41,661 nucleotides of DNA from Candidatus Hodarchaeota archaeon (GTDB taxonomy: Archaea; Asgardarchaeota; Heimdallarchaeia; Hodarchaeales; Hodarchaeaceae): assembly GCA_016840035.1 (NCBI GenBank), contig JAEOTC010000208.1, positions 1 to 41,661 of the forward strand, given 5' to 3'. Position 1 is the first letter of the stretch. The number at the start of each line of letters is the position of its first letter. A model generated the notes under the pieces. That model saw only the letters and a program-made list of their open reading frames with translations. It ran no database searches and had not been told where the DNA came from. The translations under genes were made by a program, and so were the position numbers. Shown piece after piece: positions 1 through 24,020 of the stretch.

Positions 1-972
1 TAGAGGTAGGAATATTAAGAAAATTAGAAGCTCAAAGGGGTTTGTGAATGGAGTGATAAGCGAGTAAAGCATATCTGAAGTAGAATTTTCTTCTTCGATC
101 ACGGATGAAGGTGTAGTATCAATTGAGGTATCAATTGATGTATCTGGTGTATCTGGTGTATCTGTTGTATTAGGAGGATATGAGAAAGGCATTGATGAAT
201 AGATTAACTTAGGAGGAGAAAAATAGCTTTCTGATTGAGTTTCACCAATATGAAGAAGTTGCTCCCAGATAAAACTTTCATACTCGCCATGAAATGTTCC
301 ATTTAGCTCATAATAAAAACGGGTGATGCTACCAGGAAAATTATTTTGAACTAATATCCCACCTAATCGATGTGTTCCGACATGAATGATCCATGGCCAG
401 GAGCTTGTTCCCCCCACTTGAAACGGACCATCTAGCTTAGCAACATGTACATAACGATATGTAGAATTGAAAGGATTGGCCAAAGCATTTTTAAGGTAAA
501 AATCGATCCATATTTCGGTATTCGGCATAAGAGGGTCGGAAGAATTTACAAAAAAGGTCATGTTGAACACAATAGTATCAGGATCTGTGTTTTCAATAGA
601 TAGATAAGAATCGATTTGGAAAACTATATCTGGGAGGACTCTAACAATATAGGACAATTTGTACAGTCCTGTTTGATTGAATTGAATATACTTCACATTG
701 GAATAGGTAAAATTTTGGTGAAAATCAGACTCTAGTGACAAAGGAATTATACCACGTAAGCTTGAATCATTTGCTTTAAATTCAATCTCAACATCTAAAG
801 TTTGATTTCCGTTATTTATAATCGTATAAGTCAAAGGAATAGGTTGGAATATATTTCCTGATTCAGGATGGGAAAACATAATTGTAATAGGATCATCTTC
901 TGCCTTTATTGAGGGAATAATAAGTGAATTGAAGAGTAAAACTATCACTAAGAAGAAAATCGTCTTTTTCAA
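1..972 (-). CDS. Secreted/surface protein, partial (runs off the window start), with signal peptide, Pro/Thr/Asp linker and start of a C-terminal membrane anchor
   Basis: Not in the ORF track. My manual translation is open from TTG at 972 to base 1 (324 codons). It starts MKKTIFFLVIVLLFNSLIIPSIKAEDD and ends ...PPNTTDTPDTPDTSIDTSIDTTPSS...TPFTNPFELLIFLIFLPL. A purine-rich SD-like stretch lies upstream. Confidence 0.8.
   Translation of the reverse strand, partial: MKKTIFFLVIVLLFNSLIIPSIKAEDDPITIMFSHPESGNIFQPIPLTYTIINNGNQTLDVEIEFKANDSSLRGIIPLSLESDFHQNFTYSNVKYIQFNQTGLYKLSYIVRVLPDIVFQIDSYLSIENTDPDTIVFNMTFFVNSSDPLMPNTEIWIDFYLKNALANPFNSTYRYVHVAKLDGPFQVGGTSSWPWIIHVGTHRLGGILVQNNFPGSITRFYYELNGTFHGEYESFIWEQLLHIGETQSESYFSPPKLIYSSMPFSYPPNTTDTPDTPDTSIDTSIDTTPSSVIEEENSTSDMLYSLITPFTNPFELLIFLIFLPL
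139..170. repeat. Short 9-bp tandem repeat (gtatctggt) encoding a DTP-DTP linker
   Basis: gtatctggt gtatctggt gtatctgtt, seen directly and in frame with the 1..972 ORF. Confidence 0.75.
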
Positions 973-1034
973 ATATCTTAGCCCCCCTTCGAATGAGATC
1001 TGGATTGGTTATTTTGCCTCAATCTTTTTCGTCC

Positions 1035-1104
1035 CTATCTTGATTTTTCGAAATATAAACCTATTCATAGCTGAAATCGAGATCAAGATAGCTTTGCTAT
1101 CTTG
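1035..1104. promoter_or_regulatory. Operator-like palindrome(s) upstream of the secreted-protein gene
   Basis: Perfect 9-3-9 inverted repeat caagatagc-ttt-gctatcttg (1084-1104), plus a third CTATCTTG half-site at 1035-1042. Confidence 0.4.
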
Positions 1105-1153
1105 GGTAAGGGGTACAAAGCTGGAAATAAAAAATCCTTAGGGATAGGAATAT

Positions 1154-1837
1154 CTATTCCTTGAAGAAACCGACAACAACGAAATTTTCATCATGTTGAT
1201 CTTTATTTTCAACAAGCCACCGTTGAAGCGTGTCTTTGTAAAGTTCGTCCATTCGTTTCCCAAATTCTTCAAATTCATCATTGGTGAGAAGCAGGACATC
1301 AAGTGATGGACCAGGAAAATGTTTATTGGTTTCAAGGAAAGCTTTGAGTTCTTCCTCGGACATTGATTGAATGAATTTTTTCTTTTCAGAGAGAGCAGCA
1401 ACACCAAAATTAATCTTTTCTATAATGGCTTTTTTAACATCGCCATCGCAATATTCACAATCGGGATTAGAGGTATCAGAGTCGGCATTAAGATCCTCAA
1501 GATAACGGTTCGCTGGATAAATCCAATTCTTCTTTTTGGCTTTCCCTTTCTTTCCCTTTTTCTTGACACGAGAATAATAGCCAACGTTCATGTGAGGTTT
1601 AGAAGGATGCTGTCGATATTCTACCTTAATCCAGCCCTTGTCTTCCAATTCCTTCAGATAATTATACGTTGTTTGGCGTTTTAAACCTAGGGCTTCTTGA
1701 ATGTCTTTGGCCGTTAGCTCTGTTTTCCGTAAAAGTAGCCAGAGAATTGATGGACGTATTAATTCTCCACTGGAGTAAATATTTTCCTCTTTTTTTAGTT
1801 CCTCGATTACTTCTACATCTGTACTCATATTAATCAT
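1154..1837 (-). CDS. Winged helix-turn-helix (ArsR-like) transcriptional regulator
   Basis: ILWLLLRKTELTAKDIQEALGLKRQTTYNYLKELEDKGWIKV is a typical wHTH; helical C-terminal domain with a CxxC. Confidence 0.8.
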   Translation of the reverse strand: MINMSTDVEVIEELKKEENIYSSGELIRPSILWLLLRKTELTAKDIQEALGLKRQTTYNYLKELEDKGWIKVEYRQHPSKPHMNVGYYSRVKKKGKKGKAKKKNWIYPANRYLEDLNADSDTSNPDCEYCDGDVKKAIIEKINFGVAALSEKKKFIQSMSEEELKAFLETNKHFPGPSLDVLLLTNDEFEEFGKRMDELYKDTLQRWLVENKDQHDENFVVVGFFKE

Positions 1838-1998
1838 TCATTCCCAGACAAAACCTTAGGAATTGTCCAAGATATCAAGGAACGATCAGTGTTTTATATG
1901 TTTCCATAAAAACATATTAAACCATTTTTTGAAATAGAATCCAAAATGTGTATTGTGCCAAAAAAGATACATTTAAAAATAAACCTCTCCATAATATA

Positions 1999-2023
1999 GA
2001 TGTATCCAAAAAATGGAAACATC
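1999..2023. promoter_or_regulatory. Inverted-repeat operator candidate in the divergent promoter region
   Basis: gatgtatcca-aaaaa-tggaaacatc (9/10 symmetric); related half-site atgtttcca at 1898-1906. Confidence 0.5.
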
Positions 2024-2049
2024 ATCAACACGTTCACGGATGTGATAAA

Positions 2050-2295
2050 ATGGGAACTAAAACAGTTGTAGAAACCAAAAAAACTATTGAATTCAAGTCT
2101 TTACCTGATTTCCGTCGTTTATTGAAACCTTTAGCATTATTCCTAGCTTTCATTAGTCTTCTTATCATCAGTTATTTAATTTCTCCCTCTAATCTTGTAG
2201 TTGGAGTAGTGACTGTGCTTAGCTTTGGAGTAATTGGATTATTTATCCACCAATCAATTTATGGTTTTCTTTTATTTCGGAGGTATTTCTACTAA
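2050..2295 (+). CDS. Small two-TM membrane protein
   Basis: ATG at 2050 (MGTKTVVETKK...) follows a gtgat SD-like motif; two hydrophobic helices. The track start at 1948 overlaps the promoter region and is probably too long. Confidence 0.65.
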   Translation: MGTKTVVETKKTIEFKSLPDFRRLLKPLALFLAFISLLIISYLISPSNLVVGVVTVLSFGVIGLFIHQSIYGFLLFRRYFY

Positions 2296-2917
2296 TAAAT
2301 TACGATGATGGTTCAGGGCATGACCTACAAAGCACACTTTACCCAGTTAATTTTTGAGCGGATTAACTTTTTTGCCCTGAATCCTCCACCTTTCATTTTA
2401 AATTTTTTATGCTTACCGTCAGGAAGTTCAGAAACCCCTCTAGTCCCTAAGTTAAATATGAGTACACCTACAAAGCACAAAACGAATATTTAACGCTGGA
2501 CTTCCTGGCCTTATCCCCACATACTATTATTCAAGATATCGTTTGCATTGGAAGATATTTCAGTACGTATTTGAAGAATGATTCGGAGTATGTTTTTCAA
2601 TGAGATGTGCAATCCAAAGATCACCTGAATCGAAAATTAGAGAAGCCATTAAGAAAAAGGAAACGATAATTCAGAATTCTGTTAAAAGGGCTCTTTCCAA
2701 GAAAAAAACTGTTTAGTTTCGTTAAATGTTGAAATCGAAAGAATCCTGACAGTAAACCATCTTTTTGAGCTAATAGTATCAACTTAGTGATATTCGTTCC
2801 TCATATGTAAGTTGCCCCCATCAAAAAACTTATACTTAGTGTGTTGATGATACAGTTATTCTCGTAGGTGTATTCTGAGGTATTTCGAAAATTTAAGCTA
2901 ATACAGGAGGTCTGTTA

Positions 2918-3103
2918 TTGATAAATCGAAAAGCAACTTATATTGTCGTTTTAAGTGATACGCTTGAGTTTGGTTCCTCCTCGTGTGAGTTTAAGCCCAA
3001 AAAGGTGCTCAAACCCCCGTCCAAGGAACCAGTGCCCAATACTGAAGCGTTATGTGGGGTAGAATATCGTCATATGTACGTCAGTCGTCTTCCAGTTCGT
3101 TAA
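2918..3103 (+). CDS. Possible 61-aa small protein
   Basis: TTG start preceded by a strong GGAGG SD and followed by a pyrimidine tract; no recognisable domain; overlaps a long hairpin. Confidence 0.35.
   Translation: MINRKATYIVVLSDTLEFGSSSCEFKPKKVLKPPSKEPVPNTEALCGVEYRHMYVSRLPVR
2960..3050. ncRNA. Candidate structured RNA (long imperfect hairpin)
   Basis: Nested pairings: acgctt(2960-65)/aagcgt(3045-50), tggttcct(2971-78)/aggaacca(3024-31), gttt-a-agc(2989-96)/gct-c-aaac(3007-14), cc/gg closing an A5 loop; GC-richer than its flanks. Confidence 0.4.
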
Positions 3104-3131
3104 TTCCCCCTTTTTTCCTTTTTTATTTTGT
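3104..3131 (+). terminator. Archaeal-type oligo-T terminator candidate
   Basis: ttcccccttttttccttttttattttgt, directly after the small ORF/hairpin. Confidence 0.4.
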
Positions 3132-3845
3132 TATTCTTGATAGAGGTTCCTCTCGCTCAATGATACAGAAAATACTTGATTCATCAATCTCAATGATATA
3201 TGCCTTCAGTTTCATTTTACCTATTAGCATTTGGAAATCCTCTACCGAAAATGTTGTGGCAGTGAATCCATCTTTGCACACAATAACTCCATTTCCTGTC
3301 AGTGCGAAATCGATCTCACCCAGTAATCCTTCCTGACTTTGTTGGATAAACCAGTTCAAACGTTCTTCCCAGATATTTTCCGAATAACTTGATAAAATTA
3401 CTTTTCCCCCGATTTTCGTTACTCTCAACGCCTGAGTTATCAGGATCTCGGGATCAATCTTCATTGCTGATATGGCATTTTGAATTCCTAGGACAACGTC
3501 AAATGACTCTTCGGGAAATTGGATTTTTCTTGCAGTCATGAAATGTAAATCAACATTTGAAATCTCCTTTAAATACTCTTTTGCATATGCTAAGGATGCT
3601 TCCGAGATATCAATTCCTATTATTTTCCTCCCTTTAGTAGCGACATGTTTTAGTACCCGTCCGTATCCACATCCAAGTTCTAACACAGTATCTGTTGTTT
3701 TAATCTGATCTAGCACATATTCAATTTCAGCCTGTAGATATTGTTGTATCCGTTCTGGAGCTGTTTCATATGCCTGTTTCAGCTTGAGTGCAAATAACTT
3801 CTTCGCATAATATTGACTATTTTGTACCCTGCTATTTGGATCCAT
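3123..3845 (-). CDS. Class I SAM-dependent methyltransferase
   Basis: Motif I VLELGCGYG, IIGIDIS, FPEESFDVV, LRVTKIGGKVI. Confidence 0.9.
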   Translation of the reverse strand: MDPNSRVQNSQYYAKKLFALKLKQAYETAPERIQQYLQAEIEYVLDQIKTTDTVLELGCGYGRVLKHVATKGRKIIGIDISEASLAYAKEYLKEISNVDLHFMTARKIQFPEESFDVVLGIQNAISAMKIDPEILITQALRVTKIGGKVILSSYSENIWEERLNWFIQQSQEGLLGEIDFALTGNGVIVCKDGFTATTFSVEDFQMLIGKMKLKAYIIEIDESSIFCIIEREEPLSRITK

Positions 3846-11070: not shown

Positions 11071-12111
11071 TTGGTGGCTCTTTTCGTGAATAGAAGTTCG
11101 AAATCTTCTCGTGAAGCTATCTCAGAAGGAGTTATTTTTTCCGCATTCGAGGATCATGGACCTACCAATATTTACAATTCTTCTCCATTAACTGAAGAAG
11201 AAGCGTTTGGAATGACAATTAAGACATTAACTGCCATCGGGTCTGACTCTCCTTTTCAGCCAGGAGAGATACGATGCTACGGGCCAATGCCCACCCCGAG
11301 GGATCCGTATCTTTCGTTAGGATTTATTTTCTTCTTAAAGCCTAAATCGACTGAAGACCCTCGGATCCAAAGACATGGTCGAATGATCGTTCTATGGGTA
11401 ATCACAAGTTCTGCAACTACCATAAAATATATCGGTTTAATAAAAAATATGATTAGGCGCAATCTTCAGACATATCATGTTCGGTTTGATGAAGATTTAA
11501 AAGAACGAGATGTTTTGTCAAAAATCGATGAAAAAATTCGACTGATAGAACTGGGTGTAACTCTATACTATATCTCAAGGACGGGGAGTATTGATCCCAT
11601 AATTGATCCTGGATTTATTGCCCCTGATACTACTTGTATTTTGTTAGATGACGCAAATAGACAGATTAAAGCCCTCTTACGATCAAAAATTACCCCTGGG
11701 AAAAAAAATGAGCTCCTTCAACAATTAAACGATTTTAAGTCTAAAATCCCCCAGGGAGCAATGTATAAAATCGAGATTATTTCTGATGAAATAGCGGTAC
11801 AACAACTATCATCAAGATATGGACTTTCTCGACCCGACGAAATGGGATTTCGATTCCAGTTACACTTAGCAGATGTCGTTACTTTTGAAGAGTTGGATGC
11901 TTTCTTTGAATTTCATCTCAACCCTAAACGTCACGATATGATATCTAGTATTTTAAGTGCAATATACAATAAAGAAAAATTGAACTTATTTGATGTAGCT
12001 GTCCAGACAGGGGTTTCGGTGGAATTTATGGAGGAGTTTATCCAAAGCGCAATCACAGCAAATCTAATCAAGAATGCTACTATAGAACACGGTTTTCTCG
12101 TGTGTAATTGA
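11071..12111 (+). CDS. Multidomain protein: longin/uDENN-like + gelsolin-like + PCI/winged-helix-like
   Basis: N-terminal GVIFSAFEDHGP...FIFFLKPKSTEDPRIQRHGRMIVLWVI; middle LYYIS...CILLDD...KIEIISDE; C-terminal LNLFDVAVQTGVSVEFMEEFIQSAITANLIKNATIEHG. The real start may be GTG 11086. Domain calls are by eye. Confidence 0.6.
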   Translation: MVALFVNRSSKSSREAISEGVIFSAFEDHGPTNIYNSSPLTEEEAFGMTIKTLTAIGSDSPFQPGEIRCYGPMPTPRDPYLSLGFIFFLKPKSTEDPRIQRHGRMIVLWVITSSATTIKYIGLIKNMIRRNLQTYHVRFDEDLKERDVLSKIDEKIRLIELGVTLYYISRTGSIDPIIDPGFIAPDTTCILLDDANRQIKALLRSKITPGKKNELLQQLNDFKSKIPQGAMYKIEIISDEIAVQQLSSRYGLSRPDEMGFRFQLHLADVVTFEELDAFFEFHLNPKRHDMISSILSAIYNKEKLNLFDVAVQTGVSVEFMEEFIQSAITANLIKNATIEHGFLVCN

Positions 12112-12119
12112 TTGCAAAA

Positions 12120-13019
12120 TTACAGTAGTTTGTTAACCGTTTCCGCCATTTTGTCTAATTTTACCAGAGTAAATTGAGCTGAACCAGAGGTATTTGCTAT
12201 CCCTATAAACAACAGGTCTTTTTTGAGTTTTTGAAACGCTAATATATTGTCATCAACTTCCATGGTCGTCTTGAAAGTCTTTGCTTTTGTATATTCAGTT
12301 TTCAGCTTTCCATAATTTGCTAGGGTAAGATTAGCTGGTAGCATAAAATAAGAATAGTTCCCTTGCTCAAATAATGGGACTCCTTCCTCATTACATACAA
12401 TTATCCCTGTTACGTCAGAATGTGTGGATAGAAATTCCTGGATCGCATCGGAAACTGTTAATGCTTTCGTGGATTTGAGAATTAGCGATTGGAGCATTTC
12501 ACCGATCGCTTGATAGACAGAACGATCAAAAATGGAGGTGGTCCGATATTCAATATCTAAATCTCCTTCAATCTCGAAATATGTCTTCATCATTTCATAG
12601 GCTTCATTCTGCTTATCGGTCGTTACTAGATCTCTTTTGTGAAAAAGACAAAAAACTGTGCTATCAGGAGAAAATTCTCGTAATCTTTCGATTCCATGAT
12701 TGAAGTAGAATTTACTTGTTGATACTTGCTCAAAATCACTCATATCAACAACCCAGACAAAGATTGAGACATTACTAAAAATAAACTCTGCCTGATCCCC
12801 AATAAAGGCTGAAATAAAGTTCTCTTGTCCTCCACAATCAAAAAGCTGAAATGAGCTATCAATAAAGTTCTGGGTGGTCCGCGAATAATTAATAGTTGCG
12901 TTGTAATCGGATACATCTTCGGGATTTTTCCCTTCAAATACCACAGACCGTATACTACTTTTCCCACTCGCTCCTAGGCCCATTAATAACACTTTTTGGG
13001 GTGATTGAGAACTTATCAC
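12120..13019 (-). CDS. Rag-family (Gtr1/RagA-like) small GTPase with C-terminal roadblock domain
   Basis: KVLLMGLGASGKSSIRSVVF (G1), ATI (G2), LFDCGGQ (G3), IFSNV, FSPD..VFCLFHKRD (G4), TTSIFD (G5) match Rag-specific motifs; ~115-aa tail with VTGIIVCNEEGVPL has a roadblock pattern. Confidence 0.92.
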   Translation of the reverse strand: MISSQSPQKVLLMGLGASGKSSIRSVVFEGKNPEDVSDYNATINYSRTTQNFIDSSFQLFDCGGQENFISAFIGDQAEFIFSNVSIFVWVVDMSDFEQVSTSKFYFNHGIERLREFSPDSTVFCLFHKRDLVTTDKQNEAYEMMKTYFEIEGDLDIEYRTTSIFDRSVYQAIGEMLQSLILKSTKALTVSDAIQEFLSTHSDVTGIIVCNEEGVPLFEQGNYSYFMLPANLTLANYGKLKTEYTKAKTFKTTMEVDDNILAFQKLKKDLLFIGIANTSGSAQFTLVKLDKMAETVNKLL

Positions 13020-13226
13020 AGTAATCCTTCTACCTACTTTTAGAGATTCTAATTATTTCCTCGTTATGTCGCTATATTTCTTTGACTAGATAATTTATCC
13101 GTCTAAAGGATCTGAATTTAAAATATTTTATAATTATTAAGAGACATTATCATTCTTAGACCTTTCTGAAGAACTTTTTTCCTAATTATCCATTAAGTGT
13201 ATTCTCTGTGACTCGGTGTATTCAAT

Positions 13227-16200
13227 ATGAAAAATGCAGTTAAATTCATTACAGGCCTTGTTTTAGTTATATTTCTAGTTCCAATCCTATCAACATCTAT
13301 TGTACTCCCAATAGATAACTCCCTTGAATCAAAAACTATAGCTATCCCTCCATTGAGAGGTGAAGCTCCTATTACTGAGTCTGAACTCCAAAGAAACATA
13401 GATGATGAAGCAAAATTTCCTGAGTCGTTGGCTACAACCGCCACGGATAACTTCAATCAGATAGGAAGGATTAACCCTAAAGTAGAGGGTACTGGAGTAT
13501 TTATTGAGGATTATGTAGATAATATGATTTCAGATGTTGATTCAAGTCCTGATCTTGGTGAATTGACCGATTTTTCTAATATGCAAGCTACAGATATTTC
13601 TTATTCAAATATAAGTGAAATTTCTTCTTCCGGTGCTATTACAAAAGCAGGAACCGATACAACTGGAACGGGAACTATATCTCCTTTGTCATTCTCTCAT
13701 ACATTAGTTTCTGGTAGTAATAGAATAATTTTAGTTGCTGCTCAAAGTGAAGCGAATTCCGCAAATGATATTTCTGCCACTTATGGAGGACAAACAATGG
13801 TAGAAGCCATTACTCAAACAACAGGAACGACTACAACACAGGTATTGAGCATTTTCTACCTCCTAGAAACAAATCTACCTAGTAACGGAGCTAACACAGT
13901 AGCTATTTCCTATACTGGGACTGTAACAGAGGTGAATGCTTGGTGTGGGCAATGGGATGGTGTCTCTCAAGCAACTCCAGAAGCAACTGATGAAACTGTT
14001 TGGGTATCTGGCCAAACTATTTCTAATACTATTTCTCCTTCAACAGATGCTTGGGTTATATCGACTATAGGTGAAGGGAATTCAGGTTGCACTCATACTC
14101 ATGGTCAAAGCCAAGTAGAAGTCTATGATTTTTCAGATAGTAGTTCTTCCTTTGCGGTTGCTGAATTAAGAGGAGCAAATGGTGAATTATCTTTAGATTC
14201 TACCATCACTGGGTCAATCAACAGAGGAGTAAGAATAGCAGCATCTTTTCAACCTGCAACAGGTGCGAGTGGTTATCAAATGGATCAGGAAGTGCAGTTC
14301 GAAAACGTTTACGAATCACCACTAGTTAGTGAAGAGTTACGGATTAAAACAGGCTCATTTGGAGGGTCAGAGAATATAAACGTAACTTACTGGGATGGGG
14401 ATTCTTGGGAATTAATTACATCCGATTTAACAGCATCTACATGGAATAACTTTACGGTAACTGGCCTACCTACAACTGAACCATATTTTACTATAAAATT
14501 TGGGGGGGGAACCACATCTTCAGACAGTACACAGGATTGGTGGATGATAGATGCGGTATTACTCTATGTCGAAGAGCACCTAGTCATAACCAAGGAGGAT
14601 TATGTAGATCAACAAAGTAATGTGGATTCTAACTCCGATCTTGGATCACATAGTTCATTCAATGATTTACGTGCAACTGATTCGACTTATGACAATATCA
14701 GTGAAATTGAAGCATTCTCTTCTAGTAATACAACGCTGATTGATACTGAATCATTTGAAGGAACTTGGCTACCTTCTGGATGGAGTGAAACGACTGGAAG
14801 TTTATGGAATCAAAATAGCTACCAACCTTATAGTGGGGGGGGAACTTATTATGCAGGATATTATGATCCTTCAACAACCACTTCAGGGAATTTGGATTCA
14901 CCTATTTTGAACACCGCGGATGCCAGTTCAATTTTTATTGAATTTTGGTGGAGAGATTACGCATTAGACAACAATGAATTTTTACTTCAGTTGTATAACG
15001 GAAGTACCTGGATTACTTACCAAGATATGAATTTACTTACACATACAGAGAATACTTGGACATTTTATTCCGTAGAGATCACAGATAGCCAGTACTTTGA
15101 TATGAGTTTCCAGATTCGCTGGAGATCAAATAATGTCGGGCCTGGTGAAGCTAGTGGGATAGATTTAGTTACAGTGCTCAAAAGTGTAACATCAGACTCT
15201 AGTGGTGAATGGAATGATTGGTCTTCTGAACTGTTGTCTAATGGAGGATTTGAGGATGGTAATTTTGGGGGTTGGACAGTTCAAGGAGCAAATTGGGCCG
15301 TTGGAGCTGATGCACCGTCAGGAAGTGCTGGACCTCAAGCTGGTAGTTATACTGCCTTTCAAACTACTCCTTCTTCTGCTACGGATTATATTTATCAGGA
15401 TGTTGATTTGACTTCCTATTCCTCATATATTACCGATGGGAGATTTGTAGTTAATGCTTCTGGATGGCGTGTTTCTTCAGAATATCCTGCACAAGATTTA
15501 TCGAAAATTGTTATACAATTCTTGGATAGTGGTCTTGGTCTTATATCAACTCCATTGGATACAGGATACGATGATTTAGCTTCGTGGACAAAAGAGGGAA
15601 TATATAATGCAACCGTTCCAACCAATACAAGATATATTAGAATATTTGGCTACACTGATGAAGGTAACACTTGGGATTCTGGCAATGTAGATTCTTTTTC
15701 TATCAAAGTGCGAACAAAACAAGCAAATGGAAGTAATTATCATTTGGATCAAGAGGTGCAATTTGTGGGAGTATATGATTCTCCTCTTCTTATTGAGCAA
15801 TTATGCATTAGAACTGGTTCTTTTGGCGGATCTGAAAATCTAAATGTGACTTATTGGGATGGAGATTCTTGGGAGTTACTTGACTCCGCATTAACCGCGT
15901 CTTCTTGGAATAATTATACCGTTACTCTCACAAGTCCTACATTTACCATTAAATTTGGTGGATCTACAACCTCTTCTGATAGTATTCAAGATTGGTGGGA
16001 AATTGACTCAGTCTTACTCAAAGTTGAAACTCCAGAAGAAGCTGTAGGCGATGATTCTGGATTTGTCTGGCTTGATACCCCTGATGAAGTCGATCTGGGT
16101 ACAACCTACAATTCATGGGTGGAACAAGATCTATCTGATGATAGCGTACCTAGTTCAGCAATGGGAGTAATACTTGGTTGGGTGGAGGATAGTACATCCA

Positions 16201-19200
16201 ATCTTCGGGCTGTTGCACGAGGTGCAGATGATACCAATGATTACATGGATGGGGGTACTTCTTACAACCAAATGGAAGCAGAAACATGGAAAATGCAAGT
16301 AGTTAAGCTAAGAGATCATAGATATATTGATACTTGGCGTCAGAGTTCAACTGAAAGACTTTACGTGATGGGTTACACAGTAGGCGAGGATCCTCAATAT
16401 AGAAGAGTCCCTGCTTATATGGGAAGTCTAACAGCAGACTCCACTTGGAATACGATGACTGTTCATGATATTGACAGTGATACTAATGGAGTAATTCTTT
16501 TTGCAAGATCAAGATCAAATCAAGACTCTACTATTATGGTTAGAGCTGTTGGTTCAACAGATTCTATGACGAATAGAGAGTGGGAAAATCATGTAAGTGG
16601 TACTTTTTTTGTTAAGCTTGATGCTAATGACCAGTTTGAATACTATATTACCAGTGCGAGATTAGCAGATTTTTATTTAGTTGCTGAAGTCAAGGATAAT
16701 ATTGATTGGCTGGATACAAATCGAGATTCTATATCAGCTACATCAACTGGTTGGACGATTCGAGATCTTGATAGCTATGTTACTGTTCCTTCTTCTACCT
16801 CTGGAGTATTACTTCAACATGATTCAACAGGAGGAATAGATGATTACAAGAATATTGCTCGGGAATATGGGCAAACCTGGACCTTTCCTGATTACGATGT
16901 AGGGATAGATCAATGGATGATGGGAGGTAGTGGAATTGATTCAGAAAATCGAATTCAGATATATGCAGAAAGTTTAGAACAAGATGTCTATATCCATGCA
17001 TTAACACTTTATCAGGATAATACTCCCCCAACTATAGATGCTTTTGGTGTTGAAGATCCAGGAACTGGTACTGCTACGTTTTGGGCGTCTCTAACAGACC
17101 TATCTGACCTAGACAATGTTACACTGACAGTTAATGGAACAGATTATCAAATGAGTTTTAATGGTTCTCATTGGACAAAAGATCTTACAGTTAATTGGTT
17201 GGGGTACTATACGTATCAGATTACAAATGCTTCTGATATTTTTGGTAATTTTTTAACAACTTCTTCCAACATGCAAAATTATACTTTTGCCTATGATACT
17301 GTTGCCCCATCGGCTATAGATTGGGAATATTATCAGGGTGCTGATGGCACTTGGGATAATCAGAATAATACGTTTAAGGCAAATGTTAGTGATTCTTGGG
17401 GAGAAATCGATACTGTGATACTTGAGGTAACTACTTCCTCCCAAACTGCAATGATGAAAGAATATCAAGATTTCAGTGGTATTCTCGGGTTTATCAATAA
17501 CACTTTAGAGTTAGATAATGGGGGAATAGATTTTCGAATAATAGTTAATGACACTAGTGGTAATGAAATTACTTCCTCTATTCATTCAGATTCTGTGTTT
17601 TATAATCATCCTCCAACTGCATCTAACCTTGCCCTAAATACTGACCCGTATTATAGTAATACTTCATTAATTCTTAGCTATTCATATTCGGACCCTGATT
17701 CTCATCCTCAAAGCGGAACTGAGATCCGCTGGTACAAAAATGGGATTTTACAAGGAGTCCATAATAACTCTGTAAGTATTAATCCAAGCTACTTATTTAC
17801 TGGAGATCAGTGGAATGCCACCGTAAAACCAAAAGATGGTACTTTATTTGGAGAGATCAATATATCTTCAACGATTACTATCAGTAATACTCCTCCCACG
17901 CCAACAGATGTTATAATTCTACCTAACAATCCTGTTACTTCATCGACTCTGATAGTTGACTTTAATTACTATGATTATGATGGAGATTCAGAAAATACTG
18001 GCTATCGTCAGATTGAATGGTATAAGGTTGGAACAGGACATCTAGGTACGTTTGATAATCAAACCTCTTTATCTTCGTCAAATACTGTTAAAGGGGAACA
18101 ATATTATGTAAGAATCCGAGTATTCGATGGAGAGTCATATTCAGTTTGGCTCACTAGTCCAATTATAACGATAGGTAACAGCATACCTAATGCAGTGAAT
18201 CTATCTTTACCCACTAATCCTACAAATACCACTGACCTAATAGCTAGCTGGGAAATGCAAGATGCAGATATAGGGGATGTAGAAAATACATCTGCAGTAA
18301 TTATCTATTGGTATAAGAATGGTGTTCTTCAACCCCTTTGGAATAACTCGGTCATAATTGGAGCGGGGAATACAACGAAAGGACAAATTTGGTGGTTTAA
18401 GATACAAGTCTTTGACGGAGAAAACTATTCTTCACTTACTGAACTACTTCCCCACGTTGAAATTGTTAATGCAATTCCAGTAGTCACTGATGTATCTATT
18501 GTAATTTCTACTCCCTATACAACTGATGATCTGGTCACTGATGCGTGGACCTTCACTGACGCTGATAATGATGGTGAGGGCACACCAATTATTCGTTGGT
18601 ACCGTAATAACATACTACAATCTGCTTATAATGGGTATACAACTCTTCCAGCCTCTGTCACAGCAAAGGGAGAAAATTGGCATTTTGGTGTGCAAGTTTA
18701 CGATGGATCAGCTTACTCATTACAGGTAAATTCATCACAAGTTCTTATCCAAAATACCGTTCCTGATGTAGATAATCTTACACTGACCTCTATTCCCACA
18801 ACCACTGATGATTTATTAGCTAGTTGGACCTATACCGATGAAGACTTGGATGGTCTGTCCTTCAACATTACCTGGTATCTGAATAATGTATATAATTCTA
18901 GTTGGATTACAGCAACAAATAGTGCCACATTAAATGCTGGCAATACTTCCAAATATCAACAATGGTATTATACAATTCGAGCTTATGATGATGATGATTA
19001 TTCAACTCTTATTTCACTGGGTAGCAATATAACTATCCAAAATTCAATTCCCACTACCTCTTATGCTAATTTTACTACATTAAATCCCTCTACTGTTGAT
19101 GATTTTAATTTAACCTATGGATTTGTGGATAACGATGGTGATTTGGAGTTTGCGAATGATATTATAGTCTATTGGTATGTAAATTGGGCGTATCAGTCGC

Positions 19201-22200
19201 AATATGAAAACCAGACCTCCATATATAGTGATAATACCACCACAGGTGAGATTTGGTATTATATTATCCGAGTGTTTGATGGTGAAGGCTATAGTGACAA
19301 TGTTACTTCAGATACTGGAGTAATTATAGGTGGAGGTTTAAATTTTAAGCCAACAGCAGAAAATTTAACATTAACTCCAATTTTTCCTCTTACAAGTGAT
19401 GATTTAATTGCAGATTATGATTACTCTGATCCGGAAAATAATGATGAAATCGCATTCGAGATTCAATGGTTTATGGATGGAGTTCTTCAAGAAGATTATC
19501 AGACATTGACCCTACCAGCTAGTGCAACGTCAAAAAATCAGCAATGGAATTTTACGATTCGTGTTTTTGATGGTTTACAATGGAGTGATCTAAATAATTC
19601 ACAGGTTTACACTATTGGTAATACAGCTCCTGGAGTAAGTGGAATAGATGCTACTTCTGATCCAACGACAAGTAATGATTTGTTTGTAAGTTGGAGCTCC
19701 TCCGATCAGGATTCCGATACCTTAACTTTCAATGTAACATGGATTCTAGATGGGACGAAAAATTCCAGTTTATTAACCTCTGATCATTTTGCGATACTAG
19801 GTGCAGGAAACACAACAAAAGGAGACAATTGGAATATTACCATTGAAGCTTATGATGGAGATGGTGGATATTCCACTATACTTACCCTTGGAACAACAAT
19901 TTCTATCATAAATACTAATCCTCTCGCAGAAAACCTCACCCTTAATCTTCTTCCCAAGACTGGTGACGATTTAACTGCCAATTGGGATTTTTTCGACATC
20001 GACAATGATTTAGAAGATACAGATGGAACAATTATTTTCTGGTACAAAAACGGTGATTTACAAGCATCGTGGACAAATTCTACTACAATTGGGTTTGGAA
20101 ATACCTCGAAAGGCCAGGTATGGTGGTATAAAATACAAGTGTATGATGGTGAGCAGTACTCAACACTTACCGAATTTCTTCCTCATATTGAAATCCAAAA
20201 TACAGCACCTGTTAATGTTTCAATTCTTCCTCTGCCAACTTCCCCGAGTGTTGAAAGTGAGATTGATTTAACACTCTCTTCAGTTCTTTCCTCATTTACT
20301 GATGCAGATGGGGATTCAATTGAATTAGTAGAGCTACGTTGGTACAAAAATGGAGTTCTACAAGTTAATCTAAATGATTCTTTGTCGATTTCAGGAAGTA
20401 AATTAGCTAGAGGGGATAATTGGTCATATACAACAATAGTCTCTGATGGCTTAGAATTTGCAGTATTGTCTCAATCATCAGAATTTCAGATCCTTAACTC
20501 CCTACCAAATCTTTTGGGGGCTTATTTCACTGAAGCAGGTGTAAAAACGATACATAATCTCACAGCTAACTATTTGTATGAGGATGCTGATGGTGATGTC
20601 ATTAACGTCTTTGAAATTCGATGGTATCGATCCACGAGTCCTTATATCGCATATACGCTAAATCCTGCTTATGATGGCTACTTGAGTCTTCCTTATACAG
20701 CAACGACCAAGAATGAACGGTGGAAGTTCAATATTACACTTTCAGATGGGTTCAATGCATCAACCTGGGTTCTATCTGATTATATTGCTATAGAAAACAG
20801 CATACCATGGATAGATCCGTATAGTATAGTCCTAACAGGTGGATTAACTACATCAGATCCTCTCAATGTCACTTTTATGTGGTATGATGATGATCCTGGG
20901 GATGTCCAAAGTGGGACAAGTTTCAGATGGGATGGTCCTTTTGTTACCAATCCTTCATCCAATCGTGTTCTGAATTCATCGGTCACAAAGGCAGGTGAGA
21001 CATGGTCAGTGCGTATTACTCCAGGTGATGGTACTGACTTAGGAGATGTAGTCGAAAGTAAATTATATGGTATAAGCATCATTATTGGTAATACTCCACC
21101 TGAAATCCCTGGAAATGAGATAAAGATACAGGGATATGATCCTATTAATGGTTCCTACAGTGATGGAGTTGCTTTCGGCTCGAATGTTGATCTGATAGTA
21201 CGGTACAATGTAAGTGATGTTGACGGTTTACAGGGAGTATCTGCTTATGATGTTTTTCTGGTTGATGGATATGCTTACGGATCTCAATATCGGTGGTTCA
21301 GAAATCGATCTGGTGTGGTAACTTTAATTCCCGCCCTAAATGGAATGACAACAGTTCCATCCTCCTTTATTCAAAGAGATGACCTTTGGTGGGTAGAAGT
21401 CACTCCCCGAGACTTATATGGAGATTTTGGTGTAAGTCAAAATTCTACTGAAATTAGTATCACAAATTCTGCTCCATATTTGGCCAGCCTTTCTTGGACC
21501 CAATCAGCATTTTATGCAAGCGATGATCTTTCGTTTGACTATGTTTTTGCAGATAGGGATCTTACAGATGTCGAATATGGTAGCATTATCGAATGGTACC
21601 TTAATGGGATTAATCAATCTGATTTTCACAGCTTTGTGAGTATTTCCTTCCAAAATACCTCTAAAGGTGATGTTTGGTATGCTAGAATTAGAGTATGGGA
21701 TGGTGACCTATACAGTAATTGGTTTTCCCTACCAAATATTACCATCCTTAATACAGATCCTATTGCTTCTAACATCCTTCTTACACCAGCTTCTCCAACA
21801 GCAACACAAAATCTAACAGTTAATTGGGATTATTCCGATTACGATAACGACGGTCAGCAATCTCCGAGAATTCGCTGGTATAGAAATAATATCCTACAAG
21901 TTATACTCAATGATGTGACCACGGTCAATGCTAGCTACTTGAATAGAAACGATTTCTGGTATGTGACAGTCGAAGCATTTGATGGAGAGAATTATTCCAT
22001 CTTGATTACATCTTCAAGTATAACAGTAATCAATTCTCCTCCAACACTAAAAAATGTAGTTTTATGGAATAATAATGATCTTTCTAATACCAGTTATACC
22101 GATGGTGTCATTATAATTTTAGATCTTGACTATGTTGATGATGATGGCGATTTACTAGATACAGGATCTACTAGTATTCAATGGTATCGCAATGGGGCAC

Positions 22201-24020
22201 ATCTTCCCTTATTCGATAATCAAACAAGCATTTCTAGCGGTGAATTGCAGAAAGGTGATTCTTGGTATGCTATAGTTCAAGTTTTGGATTTAGGTGGAAC
22301 AGTATGGTCAGATAACTTAACCTCTCAAACAATCACTGTGATAAATAAAGCCCCAGAAGTGACTTCTCTAACATTCTTAGAGGAACCAGGTTATCTTCTC
22401 GAAAATGAAAATATTTCACTGATCTTGATAATTTTCGATCCCGATGTCAATGATACTGATTCCTCCCTTATTGAATGGATGATTAATGGAACTTTGCAAC
22501 CACAATACACGGATCTAAGAGTAATCTCCTTTTCTGACACGAATCCTGGTGAAAATTGGACTGTAATCATTACACCATCAGATGGAGTGGATTATGGATC
22601 CATAGTCTCTCGTTCGATTATTATTGAAAGCGTTCCCTATATTCAGAATTTGACTGCAATCATTGAACAAGATAGTGATGGGCATTTTACTTTTGGAGTC
22701 CAAGTCCTCGATGCCCTTCATGATATTTCCTCTGTTGAATATGAAGTCCTGTTAAATGGAACAGTTCTTGATTTTGAAGATATCGTGAATTCACCAAATG
22801 CCACCGATTACTGGCTTCTTGATTATACCCTATCAGCTCCTGATTACTATAATACAAAAGCATTGATTGTAATTAACGCTATATCTACTCGTGGTATCCG
22901 ATCAACTAGATCATTCAACTTCACGATCATTGATGGAGTTGCTCCTCGGATATCGGAGTCAGGTCTGGGCGTATGGTTTGTAAAGGATAAAGATGATCCG
23001 ACGAATCTAACTTTCTATGCAGATATTGAAGAATATGGTTCTGGAATAGCAAATGTAACCCTATACTATTACTACAATCCTGATGAAGCAGGTGATGGAG
23101 CAAGCGCACTTCAAGAGTTTACTGAAGTTCTCATGACTTTAGAAAATTCTTTTGATGGAACCTTCAGATATAGTATTACAGTTCCATATCCCCAAGATGA
23201 TCTTGATTATGAGATACTTTATCTGGTTTCTACTCAAGATATGGAAGGAAACAGTGATCCTGCAGCATTTGACATTCATGATTATCCAGATAGGATATCA
23301 AATGAAAAAGTCGTTCAGATTACTGCAGGTGGATTACCAGAATATGTGTTGTATGTTGCTGGAGCTGCTGTGTTCCTTATATTCGTTGGCTCAATAGTTT
23401 ATGTACGATTTATCAGAAAACCCGAGTTGGTCGGATTAGACAAAGAACTCGTTATGAAAACTCAAAAGAAAATACGAGAGGAGGATATCTCGGCTAGTAT
23501 CGAAGAACATTCAATAGGTATCATTGTATCATTTTTCGCCCAAAGACAAGGACCAATACCCATCATTGTCTTCCCTGAAGTTCTTAAAGACAACTTCACT
23601 AAATTAATTGAAATATCTGATCGATCGTTCAATAATTGTGGGTTTGCTAACACGTTTGATCGCCAGATTGCTTCTAGTTTTGATATTGACCTTACTGACA
23701 CCCTATCTGTTCGCTCCATGTCATTCGGTTTTGCATTAAATCGACCTGAAGCCCGTGGAGGTAAGGAAAATCTTACTCTCAATATCTTACTCTTTGAGGG
23801 TATGTTTTCCATTCTCAATCACTTCCAAATGGAAATCCAAGCTCGGGTTCGCACTATTCATAAATTGATGGATGTCAAACCAGGTGCTAAAGATGAGATT
23901 CGTCAACGAATCTACAATTTGCGTCGTTATGTTTCCTCCATTATATTGGCATATCAAGAAATTTATGGGTTGGAACCTCCTGTAATGGAAATGCCAGATA
24001 TATTAGGTTTCGATGGATAA
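13227..24020 (+). CDS. Giant (3597 aa) type-I membrane protein: jelly-roll/lectin-like heads, cadherin/Ig-like stalk, single TM, cytoplasmic longin-like domain
   Basis: N-terminal signal peptide; many N-x-S/T sequons; 17 tandem ~95-aa repeats; TM YVLYVAGAAVFLIFVGSIVYV followed by RFIRK; ~200-aa tail with IIVSFFAQRQGPIP and FALNRPEARGG. Confidence 0.9.
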   Translation: MKNAVKFITGLVLVIFLVPILSTSIVLPIDNSLESKTIAIPPLRGEAPITESELQRNIDDEAKFPESLATTATDNFNQIGRINPKVEGTGVFIEDYVDNMISDVDSSPDLGELTDFSNMQATDISYSNISEISSSGAITKAGTDTTGTGTISPLSFSHTLVSGSNRIILVAAQSEANSANDISATYGGQTMVEAITQTTGTTTTQVLSIFYLLETNLPSNGANTVAISYTGTVTEVNAWCGQWDGVSQATPEATDETVWVSGQTISNTISPSTDAWVISTIGEGNSGCTHTHGQSQVEVYDFSDSSSSFAVAELRGANGELSLDSTITGSINRGVRIAASFQPATGASGYQMDQEVQFENVYESPLVSEELRIKTGSFGGSENINVTYWDGDSWELITSDLTASTWNNFTVTGLPTTEPYFTIKFGGGTTSSDSTQDWWMIDAVLLYVEEHLVITKEDYVDQQSNVDSNSDLGSHSSFNDLRATDSTYDNISEIEAFSSSNTTLIDTESFEGTWLPSGWSETTGSLWNQNSYQPYSGGGTYYAGYYDPSTTTSGNLDSPILNTADASSIFIEFWWRDYALDNNEFLLQLYNGSTWITYQDMNLLTHTENTWTFYSVEITDSQYFDMSFQIRWRSNNVGPGEASGIDLVTVLKSVTSDSSGEWNDWSSELLSNGGFEDGNFGGWTVQGANWAVGADAPSGSAGPQAGSYTAFQTTPSSATDYIYQDVDLTSYSSYITDGRFVVNASGWRVSSEYPAQDLSKIVIQFLDSGLGLISTPLDTGYDDLASWTKEGIYNATVPTNTRYIRIFGYTDEGNTWDSGNVDSFSIKVRTKQANGSNYHLDQEVQFVGVYDSPLLIEQLCIRTGSFGGSENLNVTYWDGDSWELLDSALTASSWNNYTVTLTSPTFTIKFGGSTTSSDSIQDWWEIDSVLLKVETPEEAVGDDSGFVWLDTPDEVDLGTTYNSWVEQDLSDDSVPSSAMGVILGWVEDSTSNLRAVARGADDTNDYMDGGTSYNQMEAETWKMQVVKLRDHRYIDTWRQSSTERLYVMGYTVGEDPQYRRVPAYMGSLTADSTWNTMTVHDIDSDTNGVILFARSRSNQDSTIMVRAVGSTDSMTNREWENHVSGTFFVKLDANDQFEYYITSARLADFYLVAEVKDNIDWLDTNRDSISATSTGWTIRDLDSYVTVPSSTSGVLLQHDSTGGIDDYKNIAREYGQTWTFPDYDVGIDQWMMGGSGIDSENRIQIYAESLEQDVYIHALTLYQDNTPPTIDAFGVEDPGTGTATFWASLTDLSDLDNVTLTVNGTDYQMSFNGSHWTKDLTVNWLGYYTYQITNASDIFGNFLTTSSNMQNYTFAYDTVAPSAIDWEYYQGADGTWDNQNNTFKANVSDSWGEIDTVILEVTTSSQTAMMKEYQDFSGILGFINNTLELDNGGIDFRIIVNDTSGNEITSSIHSDSVFYNHPPTASNLALNTDPYYSNTSLILSYSYSDPDSHPQSGTEIRWYKNGILQGVHNNSVSINPSYLFTGDQWNATVKPKDGTLFGEINISSTITISNTPPTPTDVIILPNNPVTSSTLIVDFNYYDYDGDSENTGYRQIEWYKVGTGHLGTFDNQTSLSSSNTVKGEQYYVRIRVFDGESYSVWLTSPIITIGNSIPNAVNLSLPTNPTNTTDLIASWEMQDADIGDVENTSAVIIYWYKNGVLQPLWNNSVIIGAGNTTKGQIWWFKIQVFDGENYSSLTELLPHVEIVNAIPVVTDVSIVISTPYTTDDLVTDAWTFTDADNDGEGTPIIRWYRNNILQSAYNGYTTLPASVTAKGENWHFGVQVYDGSAYSLQVNSSQVLIQNTVPDVDNLTLTSIPTTTDDLLASWTYTDEDLDGLSFNITWYLNNVYNSSWITATNSATLNAGNTSKYQQWYYTIRAYDDDDYSTLISLGSNITIQNSIPTTSYANFTTLNPSTVDDFNLTYGFVDNDGDLEFANDIIVYWYVNWAYQSQYENQTSIYSDNTTTGEIWYYIIRVFDGEGYSDNVTSDTGVIIGGGLNFKPTAENLTLTPIFPLTSDDLIADYDYSDPENNDEIAFEIQWFMDGVLQEDYQTLTLPASATSKNQQWNFTIRVFDGLQWSDLNNSQVYTIGNTAPGVSGIDATSDPTTSNDLFVSWSSSDQDSDTLTFNVTWILDGTKNSSLLTSDHFAILGAGNTTKGDNWNITIEAYDGDGGYSTILTLGTTISIINTNPLAENLTLNLLPKTGDDLTANWDFFDIDNDLEDTDGTIIFWYKNGDLQASWTNSTTIGFGNTSKGQVWWYKIQVYDGEQYSTLTEFLPHIEIQNTAPVNVSILPLPTSPSVESEIDLTLSSVLSSFTDADGDSIELVELRWYKNGVLQVNLNDSLSISGSKLARGDNWSYTTIVSDGLEFAVLSQSSEFQILNSLPNLLGAYFTEAGVKTIHNLTANYLYEDADGDVINVFEIRWYRSTSPYIAYTLNPAYDGYLSLPYTATTKNERWKFNITLSDGFNASTWVLSDYIAIENSIPWIDPYSIVLTGGLTTSDPLNVTFMWYDDDPGDVQSGTSFRWDGPFVTNPSSNRVLNSSVTKAGETWSVRITPGDGTDLGDVVESKLYGISIIIGNTPPEIPGNEIKIQGYDPINGSYSDGVAFGSNVDLIVRYNVSDVDGLQGVSAYDVFLVDGYAYGSQYRWFRNRSGVVTLIPALNGMTTVPSSFIQRDDLWWVEVTPRDLYGDFGVSQNSTEISITNSAPYLASLSWTQSAFYASDDLSFDYVFADRDLTDVEYGSIIEWYLNGINQSDFHSFVSISFQNTSKGDVWYARIRVWDGDLYSNWFSLPNITILNTDPIASNILLTPASPTATQNLTVNWDYSDYDNDGQQSPRIRWYRNNILQVILNDVTTVNASYLNRNDFWYVTVEAFDGENYSILITSSSITVINSPPTLKNVVLWNNNDLSNTSYTDGVIIILDLDYVDDDGDLLDTGSTSIQWYRNGAHLPLFDNQTSISSGELQKGDSWYAIVQVLDLGGTVWSDNLTSQTITVINKAPEVTSLTFLEEPGYLLENENISLILIIFDPDVNDTDSSLIEWMINGTLQPQYTDLRVISFSDTNPGENWTVIITPSDGVDYGSIVSRSIIIESVPYIQNLTAIIEQDSDGHFTFGVQVLDALHDISSVEYEVLLNGTVLDFEDIVNSPNATDYWLLDYTLSAPDYYNTKALIVINAISTRGIRSTRSFNFTIIDGVAPRISESGLGVWFVKDKDDPTNLTFYADIEEYGSGIANVTLYYYYNPDEAGDGASALQEFTEVLMTLENSFDGTFRYSITVPYPQDDLDYEILYLVSTQDMEGNSDPAAFDIHDYPDRISNEKVVQITAGGLPEYVLYVAGAAVFLIFVGSIVYVRFIRKPELVGLDKELVMKTQKKIREEDISASIEEHSIGIIVSFFAQRQGPIPIIVFPEVLKDNFTKLIEISDRSFNNCGFANTFDRQIASSFDIDLTDTLSVRSMSFGFALNRPEARGGKENLTLNILLFEGMFSILNHFQMEIQARVRTIHKLMDVKPGAKDEIRQRIYNLRRYVSSIILAYQEIYGLEPPVMEMPDILGFDG
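17604..22628 (+). repeat. 17 tandem cadherin/Ig-like beta-sandwich repeats (protein-level)
   Basis: Consensus NxxP...L...Y.D.D.D...I.WY.NG..Q...T.KG..W...V.DG..YS...I.I, counted 17 times by eye. Confidence 0.85.

Follow-up and report, generated by a model that had tools for sequence, protein, structure and literature searches.

Which function resides in the cytoplasmic tail of a giant archaeal surface protein is the question raised by the locus studied here, a window of 41,661 nucleotides that comprises contig JAEOTC010000208.1 of the Candidatus Hodarchaeota archaeon assembly GCA_016840035.1 (positions 1 to 41,661, forward strand). The window encodes a single-pass surface protein of 3597 amino acids (aa), the last 195 residues of which had been likened in a first-pass annotation of the sequence to the longin domain of FLCN and SMCR8; Arg3510 had been proposed there as the arginine finger of a GTPase-activating protein (GAP), and the whole as a receptor with a built-in GAP. 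The analysis reported here indicates that the tail is, with little doubt, a homologous longin of the type marked by a Gly-Pro (GP) motif and an arginine, and very probably related by descent to the catalytic longins in the FLCN-FNIP, GATOR1 (NPRL2) and C9orf72-SMCR8 GAP complexes. That it acts on a co-encoded Rag-like GTPase is probable, and that it is a true arginine-finger GAP is a tentative proposal, to which we give slightly less than an even chance. As a whole, we favour, at somewhat better than even odds, a membrane-tethered FLCN-type longin acting on co-encoded Rag-like GTPases, most likely as a GAP through R3510 and probably as a longin dimer. The elements of the protein on which this reading is built are the following:

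13227..24020, + strand: gene of the single-pass (type I) surface protein, 3597 aa, a single open reading frame (ORF)
13314..23342, + strand: ectodomain, residues ~30-3372 (~3,340 residues), from the sequence
23343..23405, + strand: transmembrane (TM) helix Y3373-V3393, the sole C-terminal one, from hydropathy and sequence
23406..23432, + strand: basic juxtamembrane linker RFIRKPELV, from the sequence
23433..24017, + strand: conserved cytoplasmic tail domain, 195 residues (3403-3597), from homologues, alignment and AlphaFold2
23511..23966, + strand: longin fold, residues 3429-3580, from DSSP of the AlphaFold2 model and VIA-align
23535..23537, + strand: Phe3437, Phe in 116 of 119 tails, in register with Phe10 of FLCN
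23550..23555, + strand: GP motif G3442-P3443 at the beta1-beta2 turn, Gly in all 119 tails, Pro in 112 of them
23754..23756, + strand: Arg3510, candidate arginine finger in the motif A-R-G-G-x-E-N, Arg in 115 of 118 tails, in the beta4-beta5 loop
23922..23924, + strand: Arg3566 in the last long helix, an invariant Arg (116 of 116 tails)

The AlphaFold2 model of the tail, computed from the tail alignment, reached a predicted local distance difference test score (pLDDT) of 94.5 and a predicted template modelling score (pTM) of 0.88. In tail numbering, two short helices precede beta1 (27-36), beta2 (40-47), an alpha helix (49-69), beta3 (79-86), beta4 (92-103) and beta5 (111-121), and three further helices close the domain; the beta-beta-alpha-beta-beta-beta-alpha order of the model is the longin topology. 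The GP motif occupies tail residues 40-41, in the modelled turn between beta1 and beta2, and R3510 corresponds to tail residue 108, in the modelled loop between beta4 and beta5. Comparison with the longins of FLCN, SMCR8 and NPRL2, which the first-pass annotation had proposed as a check, thus places the tail among longins of the GP-motif kind, with its arginine in the beta4-beta5 loop.

When VIA-align was run with the model against 48,161 representative PDB chains, with no prefiltering, the best match was the longin of a Loki Roadblock-Longin protein (8yqg, Z 14.3). Ranks 2-7 of this exhaustive comparison were all subunits of longin-GAP complexes; FLCN (6nzd_H) scored Z 12.2, with a root-mean-square deviation (rmsd) of 2.6 Å over 135 residues, and C9orf72 (11.8), Lst4 (11.5), an NPRL2 chain (11.0), SMCR8 (10.6) and the SEA complex (10.4) scored close by. 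Lower values were obtained for DENND1A (9.6) and FNIP2 (9.5), and the longins of AP, TRAPP, COPI and SNARE proteins did not exceed 8.4, so that the tail lies nearer to the longins of GAP complexes than to other longins by a modest margin of 1-4 Z units. Rescoring of Foldseek's own list with VIA-align agreed with the exhaustive comparison. Since the Z values of the three eukaryotic families differ by no more than about 1.5 units, the tail is not assignable to a single one of them. In the ESM Atlas, the neighbours found by features were an Asgard cluster with NPR2, followed by LST7/Folliculin and C9orf72-like clusters, and those found by shape were an Asgard longin-GTPase fusion, Avl9/uDENN, a Heimdall PF11704 cluster, NPR2, C9orf72 and FLCN/SMCR8.

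The two sequence strings on which the likeness to FLCN and SMCR8 had been based are both present after the TM helix, GIIVSFFAQRQGPIPIIVFP at residues 3431-3450 and SFGFALNRPEARGGKENLTLNILL at residues 3499-3522, and translation confirmed residue 3510 as Arg, encoded by the CGT codon at 23754-23756. The FLCN string given in the first-pass annotation proved to be exact, corresponding to residues 153-172 of Folliculin in 6ulg_L, with R164 as its arginine. The claimed identity of spacing also holds, with F3502-x6-A3509-R3510-G3511 in the tail and F156-x6-A163-R164-G165 in FLCN. A second register was found at the beta1-beta2 turn. The structural alignment starts with model residue 27 opposite FLCN residue 2 and, with FLCN residues 1-24 taken from 6ulg_L and the first strand read gap-free, it pairs F3437 with F10, Q3439 with E12, and G3442-P3443 with G15-P16. 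In FLCN, the substitution F10D abolishes GAP activity and the loop 10-16 confers specificity for RagC (PMC9473554), and R147 of SMCR8 is the counterpart of FLCN R164 in the betaL4-betaL5 loop (bioRxiv 10.1101/2020.04.16.045708). PMC12290439 reports the GP motif plus the arginine finger as the hallmark of the longins with catalytic function, namely FLCN, NPRL2 and SMCR8; C9orf72 has the GP motif as well. Some Asgard longins possess both features, and the pair is missing in FNIP2, NPRL3 and other longins.

Homologues of the tail were collected with phmmer from 1.84 billion representative proteins and fell into 147 clusters, 70 of them below 1e-30. In every one of the 147 clusters the match lies at the very end of the protein, on the C-terminal side, and the proteins range from about 200 to 5,809 aa in length; nearly every full-length homologue had one TM helix 185-212 residues before its C-terminus, and many also had an N-terminal hydrophobic segment. 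Conservation was counted over 113-119 aligned tails, with identities to the query down to ~21-25%. Positions G3442, P3445 and R3566 were invariant, and G3431, F3437, Q3439, P3443, P3450, D3465, F3468, F3473, R3510, G3512, E3514 and N3515 were conserved in at least 90% of the tails, giving the consensus motifs F-F-D-Q-x-x-G-P-I-P and A-R-G-G-x-E-N. With motifs that are near-invariant across the homologous tails, the likeness to the FLCN/SMCR8 longin is beyond chance, and Arg3510, the conservation of which the first-pass annotation had singled out for examination, is retained at the frequency given above (115 of 118). The closest relative shares the string F-F-A-Q with the tail of the window, a subfamily-specific change beside the GP motif.

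All source names of the homologues read "hypothetical protein", and the labelled sources were Asgard metagenome-assembled genomes of Hodarchaeales, Kariarchaeaceae, Heimdallarchaeaceae, Hermod and Thor, the nearest relatives (70-75% identical) belonging to Kariarchaeaceae and Hodarchaeales. Two family members, P0163 and P0247, derive from records labelled "Planctomycetota bacterium" and "bacterium", which are probably mis-binned or mislabelled Asgard contigs. Across the 400 genomes of the phylum that were scanned, strong tail matches (E < 1e-40) were confined to the class of the window and one outlier. The genus of the window carries up to eight or more copies per genome, some of them in tandem and some in frames of more than 10,000 aa, and three copies are present in the window's own genome. 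Tandem arrays of three tail-bearing receptor genes were observed (G022:C160:4738-15270; G075:C193:39661-40224), as were frames of up to 10,431 aa.

At the level of sequence families, PF11704 (Folliculin) was the sole Pfam family matched repeatedly, by 32 of 113 tail relatives (best E 1.9e-4), with every other family matched by at most six, in line with the proposed likeness to FLCN and SMCR8. PF11704 was matched in five of ten inspected relatives, all five at 12-17 bits against a curated cut-off of 23.3. The alignments are collinear, with tail residues ~95-160 opposite profile positions 48-113, a region that spans beta4, the arginine loop, beta5 and a helix. Judged from sequence, the tail is thus a distant relative of PF11704 and not a Pfam-defined member. 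A transitive link was sought through a soluble protein of 387 aa encoded elsewhere in the genome (contig C230) and was rejected, this protein having a weak profile match (E 4e-6) and no Pfam hit.

The protein that presents this domain was read as the translation of 13227-24017. A hydrophobic N-terminal segment (residues 11-29) is followed by an ectodomain in which Ser, Thr, Asp and Asn abound. It contains 83 N-x-S/T sequons and only three Cys, and between residues ~1500 and 3000 a ~97-aa unit with the motif W-Y-x-N-G is repeated at least 11 times. No Pfam family was matched by the whole 3597-aa protein at E <= 0.01. By the positive-inside rule, positively charged residues flank the cytoplasmic end of a TM helix; since the linker RFIRKPELV is positively charged, the tail is placed in the cytoplasm, where the domain sits directly beneath the membrane, about ten residues past the TM helix. 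A 118-aa antisense ORF (23462-23818, - strand) lies entirely within the conserved tail-coding region and is most likely spurious.

The genes upstream of the receptor gene provide the link to a GTPase:

12120..13019, - strand: Gtr1/RagA-type GTPase, 299 aa, candidate partner or substrate (PF04670, E 5.6e-41)
13020..13226, no strand: spacer of 207 bp between the divergent Rag-like and receptor genes, from the ORF coordinates
11071..12111, + strand: soluble 346-aa protein P0220, with longin, gelsolin-like and winged-helix domains (AlphaFold2, pLDDT 80)

The 299-aa GTPase consists of a G domain and a C-terminal part of about 100 aa, matches PF04670 with 140.9 bits (cut-off 22) and has a P-loop, a DCGGQ motif and an HK.D motif that are invariant among 68 homologues. 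Two of its three nearest Rag paralogues in the same genome also adjoin tail genes (contigs C188 and C28), the one on C28 being co-directional with, and immediately upstream of, a 2120-aa receptor gene. Linkage was assessed in 20 tail loci from 18 genomes, picked by receptor-gene length only. A Rag-like gene was directly adjacent in 13 of them, in several families; these counts include related genomes and are hence non-independent, and the linkage recurs at paralogous loci. Given 5-12 strong Rag-like genes per genome of 3-6 Mb, adjacency by chance is expected at about 1%. The usual cassette in two further families of the class consists of a receptor gene (1,450-1,630 aa), then a long Rag-like gene (565-700 aa) and, facing it, a convergent Rag-like gene (411-445 aa); the two Rag-like proteins could be a RagA/RagC-like pair. 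The 565-700-aa Rag-like proteins have an N-terminal G domain and about 400 further, unassigned residues (L033-L049, e.g. L038:7020-14401).

P0220, whose gene converges on the Rag gene, is a member of a family of ~340-aa proteins that are all annotated as "hypothetical"; the convergent pairing with Rag-like GTPase genes is conserved. In VIA-align comparisons, its N-terminal longin scored Z 11.0 to 8yqg, 10.8 to FLCN and ~10 to AP sigma, its middle gelsolin-like domain 8.3 and its C-terminal winged helix 8.7. The family has its own invariant residues, G30-P31 in the turn joining beta1 to beta2 and R98 ahead of beta5, and the longin of P0220 is a family separate from the tail, related to it by fold only. 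Members adjoin Rag-like genes in the same genome (C43) and in relatives, and a P0220-family gene was also found beside a tail receptor gene at four places (G074:C28, G070:C1, G069:C4 and G397:C4). A second cluster of the same genome, at G000:C43:951-4695, is a row of genes on one strand in which a P0220-like longin gene (268 aa) accompanies three genes for Rag-like or small GTPases. From its modelled fold, P0220 may be regarded as a candidate second longin for the tail, and it could connect the GTPase to actin. A structure prediction for a complex of the tail, the Rag protein and residues 1-165 of P0220 gave a score of 0.00, which speaks neither for nor against binding.

In the mechanism that we favour, the tail would bring the Gtr1/RagA-type GTPase encoded beside it to the cytoplasmic side of the membrane and touch its G domain through a surface made up of the beta1-beta2 turn (F3437, G3442-P3443) plus the beta4-beta5 loop. 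Arg3510 would then be inserted beside the gamma-phosphate, accelerating GTP hydrolysis. The tail would probably work as a dimeric longin, either with itself or with the soluble longin-gelsolin-winged-helix neighbour, and the large, variable, glycosylated ectodomain would tie the GTPase's nucleotide state to what happens at the cell surface. Hence, of the proposal of a receptor with a built-in GAP, the longin homology and the position of Arg3510 are supported, and a recurrent linkage to Rag genes was found, whereas GAP activity and its substrate are matters of inference; taken as a whole, it is a well-founded hypothesis.

Several results weigh against the favoured reading. The best structural match, 8yqg, is an uncharacterised Loki longin and not a proven GAP. 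The tail of the window itself had no Pfam match, the PF11704 matches of its relatives all lay below the curated cut-off, and searches of PDB sequences with the tail alone, a full-tail profile and a longin-core profile retrieved no FLCN, SMCR8 or NPRL2, returning noise only (coiled coils, reverse gyrase). Residue 3438 (23538-23540), within the first motif, is Ala here as against Asp in 105 of 119 tails, and the spatial equivalence of Arg3510 and R164 is deduced from secondary-structure position and motif register. Moreover, the GAP longins of eukaryotes are active solely in heterodimers with another longin, and the partner of the tail is a candidate only, hhalign having detected no similarity between the tail profile and either P0220 alone or the P0220 family. 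Finally, in the genus of the window about one quarter of the tail genes adjoin a strong Rag-like gene.

In the main rival reading, the tail would be a non-catalytic longin platform, that is, a membrane anchor, a scaffold or a GEF-like regulator (guanine nucleotide exchange factor) that holds Rag-like GTPases and uses Arg and GP for binding or folding, which we consider possible, if rather unlikely. Both the fold of the tail and its gene linkage fit a platform equally well, a TM-tethered longin would supply the membrane anchor of which none is known for archaeal Rag-like proteins, and the top structural match has no known activity. Eukaryotic parallels exist in Ragulator and in FLCN within the inactive lysosomal complex, and most longin/roadblock platforms are GEFs or scaffolds rather than GAPs, according to PMC10933270. 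What argues against such a platform is that the GP motif together with a beta4-beta5 arginine is reported in PMC12290439 only for GAP-type longins, and that GP and Arg are kept in 94-100% of the tails, down to ~25% identity.

A tail independent of Rag, serving as a sorting, trafficking or cytoskeleton module for giant adhesin-like proteins or acting on Arf-like or Rab-like GTPases, appears improbable. It would accommodate the absence of an adjacent Rag-like gene at seven of the 20 sampled loci and for about three quarters of the tail genes in the own genus, the gelsolin-like domain of the neighbour P0220, and the fact that C9orf72-SMCR8 targets Arf and Rab, not Rag; nevertheless, adjacency to strong PF04670 genes far exceeds the chance expectation and recurs at paralogous loci in several families. 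Least credible, to the point of being nearly negligible, is a chance motif match or a sensor domain of the PAS/LOV type. The best Foldseek E-values did belong to LOV proteins, but this identity was rejected, as those matches had TM-scores of 0.28-0.34 and rmsd values of 10-12 Å and none entered the top 50 of the exhaustive comparison, the top of which is filled by longins, and the motifs are conserved throughout the family.

At the heart of the pathway by which eukaryotes signal amino acids to TORC1 stand the Rag GTPases and their longin GAPs (FLCN-FNIP, GATOR1). That GP/Arg longins of the FLCN- and NPRL2-like kinds exist in Asgard archaea has already been published. Asgard archaea possess many Rag-like GTPases and GP/Arg longins, which, according to PMC10933270 and PMC12290439, cannot be matched to each other since they are not encoded together. 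The tail family supplies such a match between longin and GTPase, with a defined domain, point mutants (R3510A, F3437D, GP) and a neighbouring GTPase that are all of a size suited to assays. Within the searched literature, as far as its texts were accessible, no description of a membrane-anchored receptor form or of its linkage to Rag genes was found, and a longin on a receptor-like protein at the cell membrane is an arrangement not known in eukaryotes. A broader scenario, which we put forward as speculative and doubtful, is that a receptor family of the Heimdall group, with up to eight or more members per genome and hypervariable glycosylated ectodomains of 200 to more than 10,000 residues, would set the GTP/GDP state of co-encoded Rag proteins through a built-in folliculin-type longin, with the soluble longin-gelsolin-winged-helix adaptor possibly reaching actin; the FLCN/GATOR1-Rag switch might then have begun as a receptor-coupled system of the plasma membrane.

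The closest known systems include the Asgard GP longins of FLCN/SMCR8 type (PMC12290439), the NPRL2-like Asgard longin fusions (bioRxiv 10.1101/2020.10.19.343400) and the Loki Roadblock-Longin structure 8yqg. These are archaeal longins of the same phylum with the same arrangement of GP and Arg, 8yqg being the nearest solved structure. In the portions of the texts that were available, the published Asgard longins are described without a TM-anchored tail on giant surface proteins or a linkage to Rag genes, and their partner GTPases are called hard to assign; the sequences of the tail family may overlap with the 15 Asgard longins of PMC12290439.

With FLCN, which works with FNIP1/2 and corresponds to Lst7-Lst4 in yeast (PDB 6nzd, 6ulg, 8dhb, 4zy8), the tail shares the longin fold, the F-x-(E/Q)-x-x-G-P motif at the beta1-beta2 turn and the F-x6-A-R-G motif in the beta4-beta5 loop. 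FLCN is a GAP for RagC/D (Gtr2), and the tail gene is likewise linked to Rag-family GTPases; as in yeast Lst7, the tail represents the longin part only, without DENN. In contrast, it is only ~15% identical to FLCN, falls under the PF11704 cut-off and has no recognisable FNIP. The C-terminal DENN domain of FLCN, FNIP, SMCR8 and C9orf72 is missing, the protein ending after the longin and its helices, and the tail is TM-tethered to a glycosylated ectodomain of 3,340 residues, whereas FLCN is soluble and recruited to the lysosome.

NPRL2 (GATOR1) and SMCR8/C9orf72 belong to the same fold class as the tail (Z 10.6-11.8). The tail shares with NPRL2 and SMCR8 the GP motif and an arginine that is catalytic in those two; these proteins act as longin heterodimers and, unlike the tail protein, NPRL2 and SMCR8/C9orf72 carry extra C-terminal domains and do not span the membrane. 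Plexins, finally, are receptors that cross the membrane once and combine an extensive ectodomain with a GAP domain for small GTPases in the cytoplasm. The tail protein, with its ectodomain, its one TM helix and its proposed cytoplasmic GAP domain, would be their functional analogue, in which a longin with a predicted GAP role takes the place of the unrelated RasGAP-like fold.

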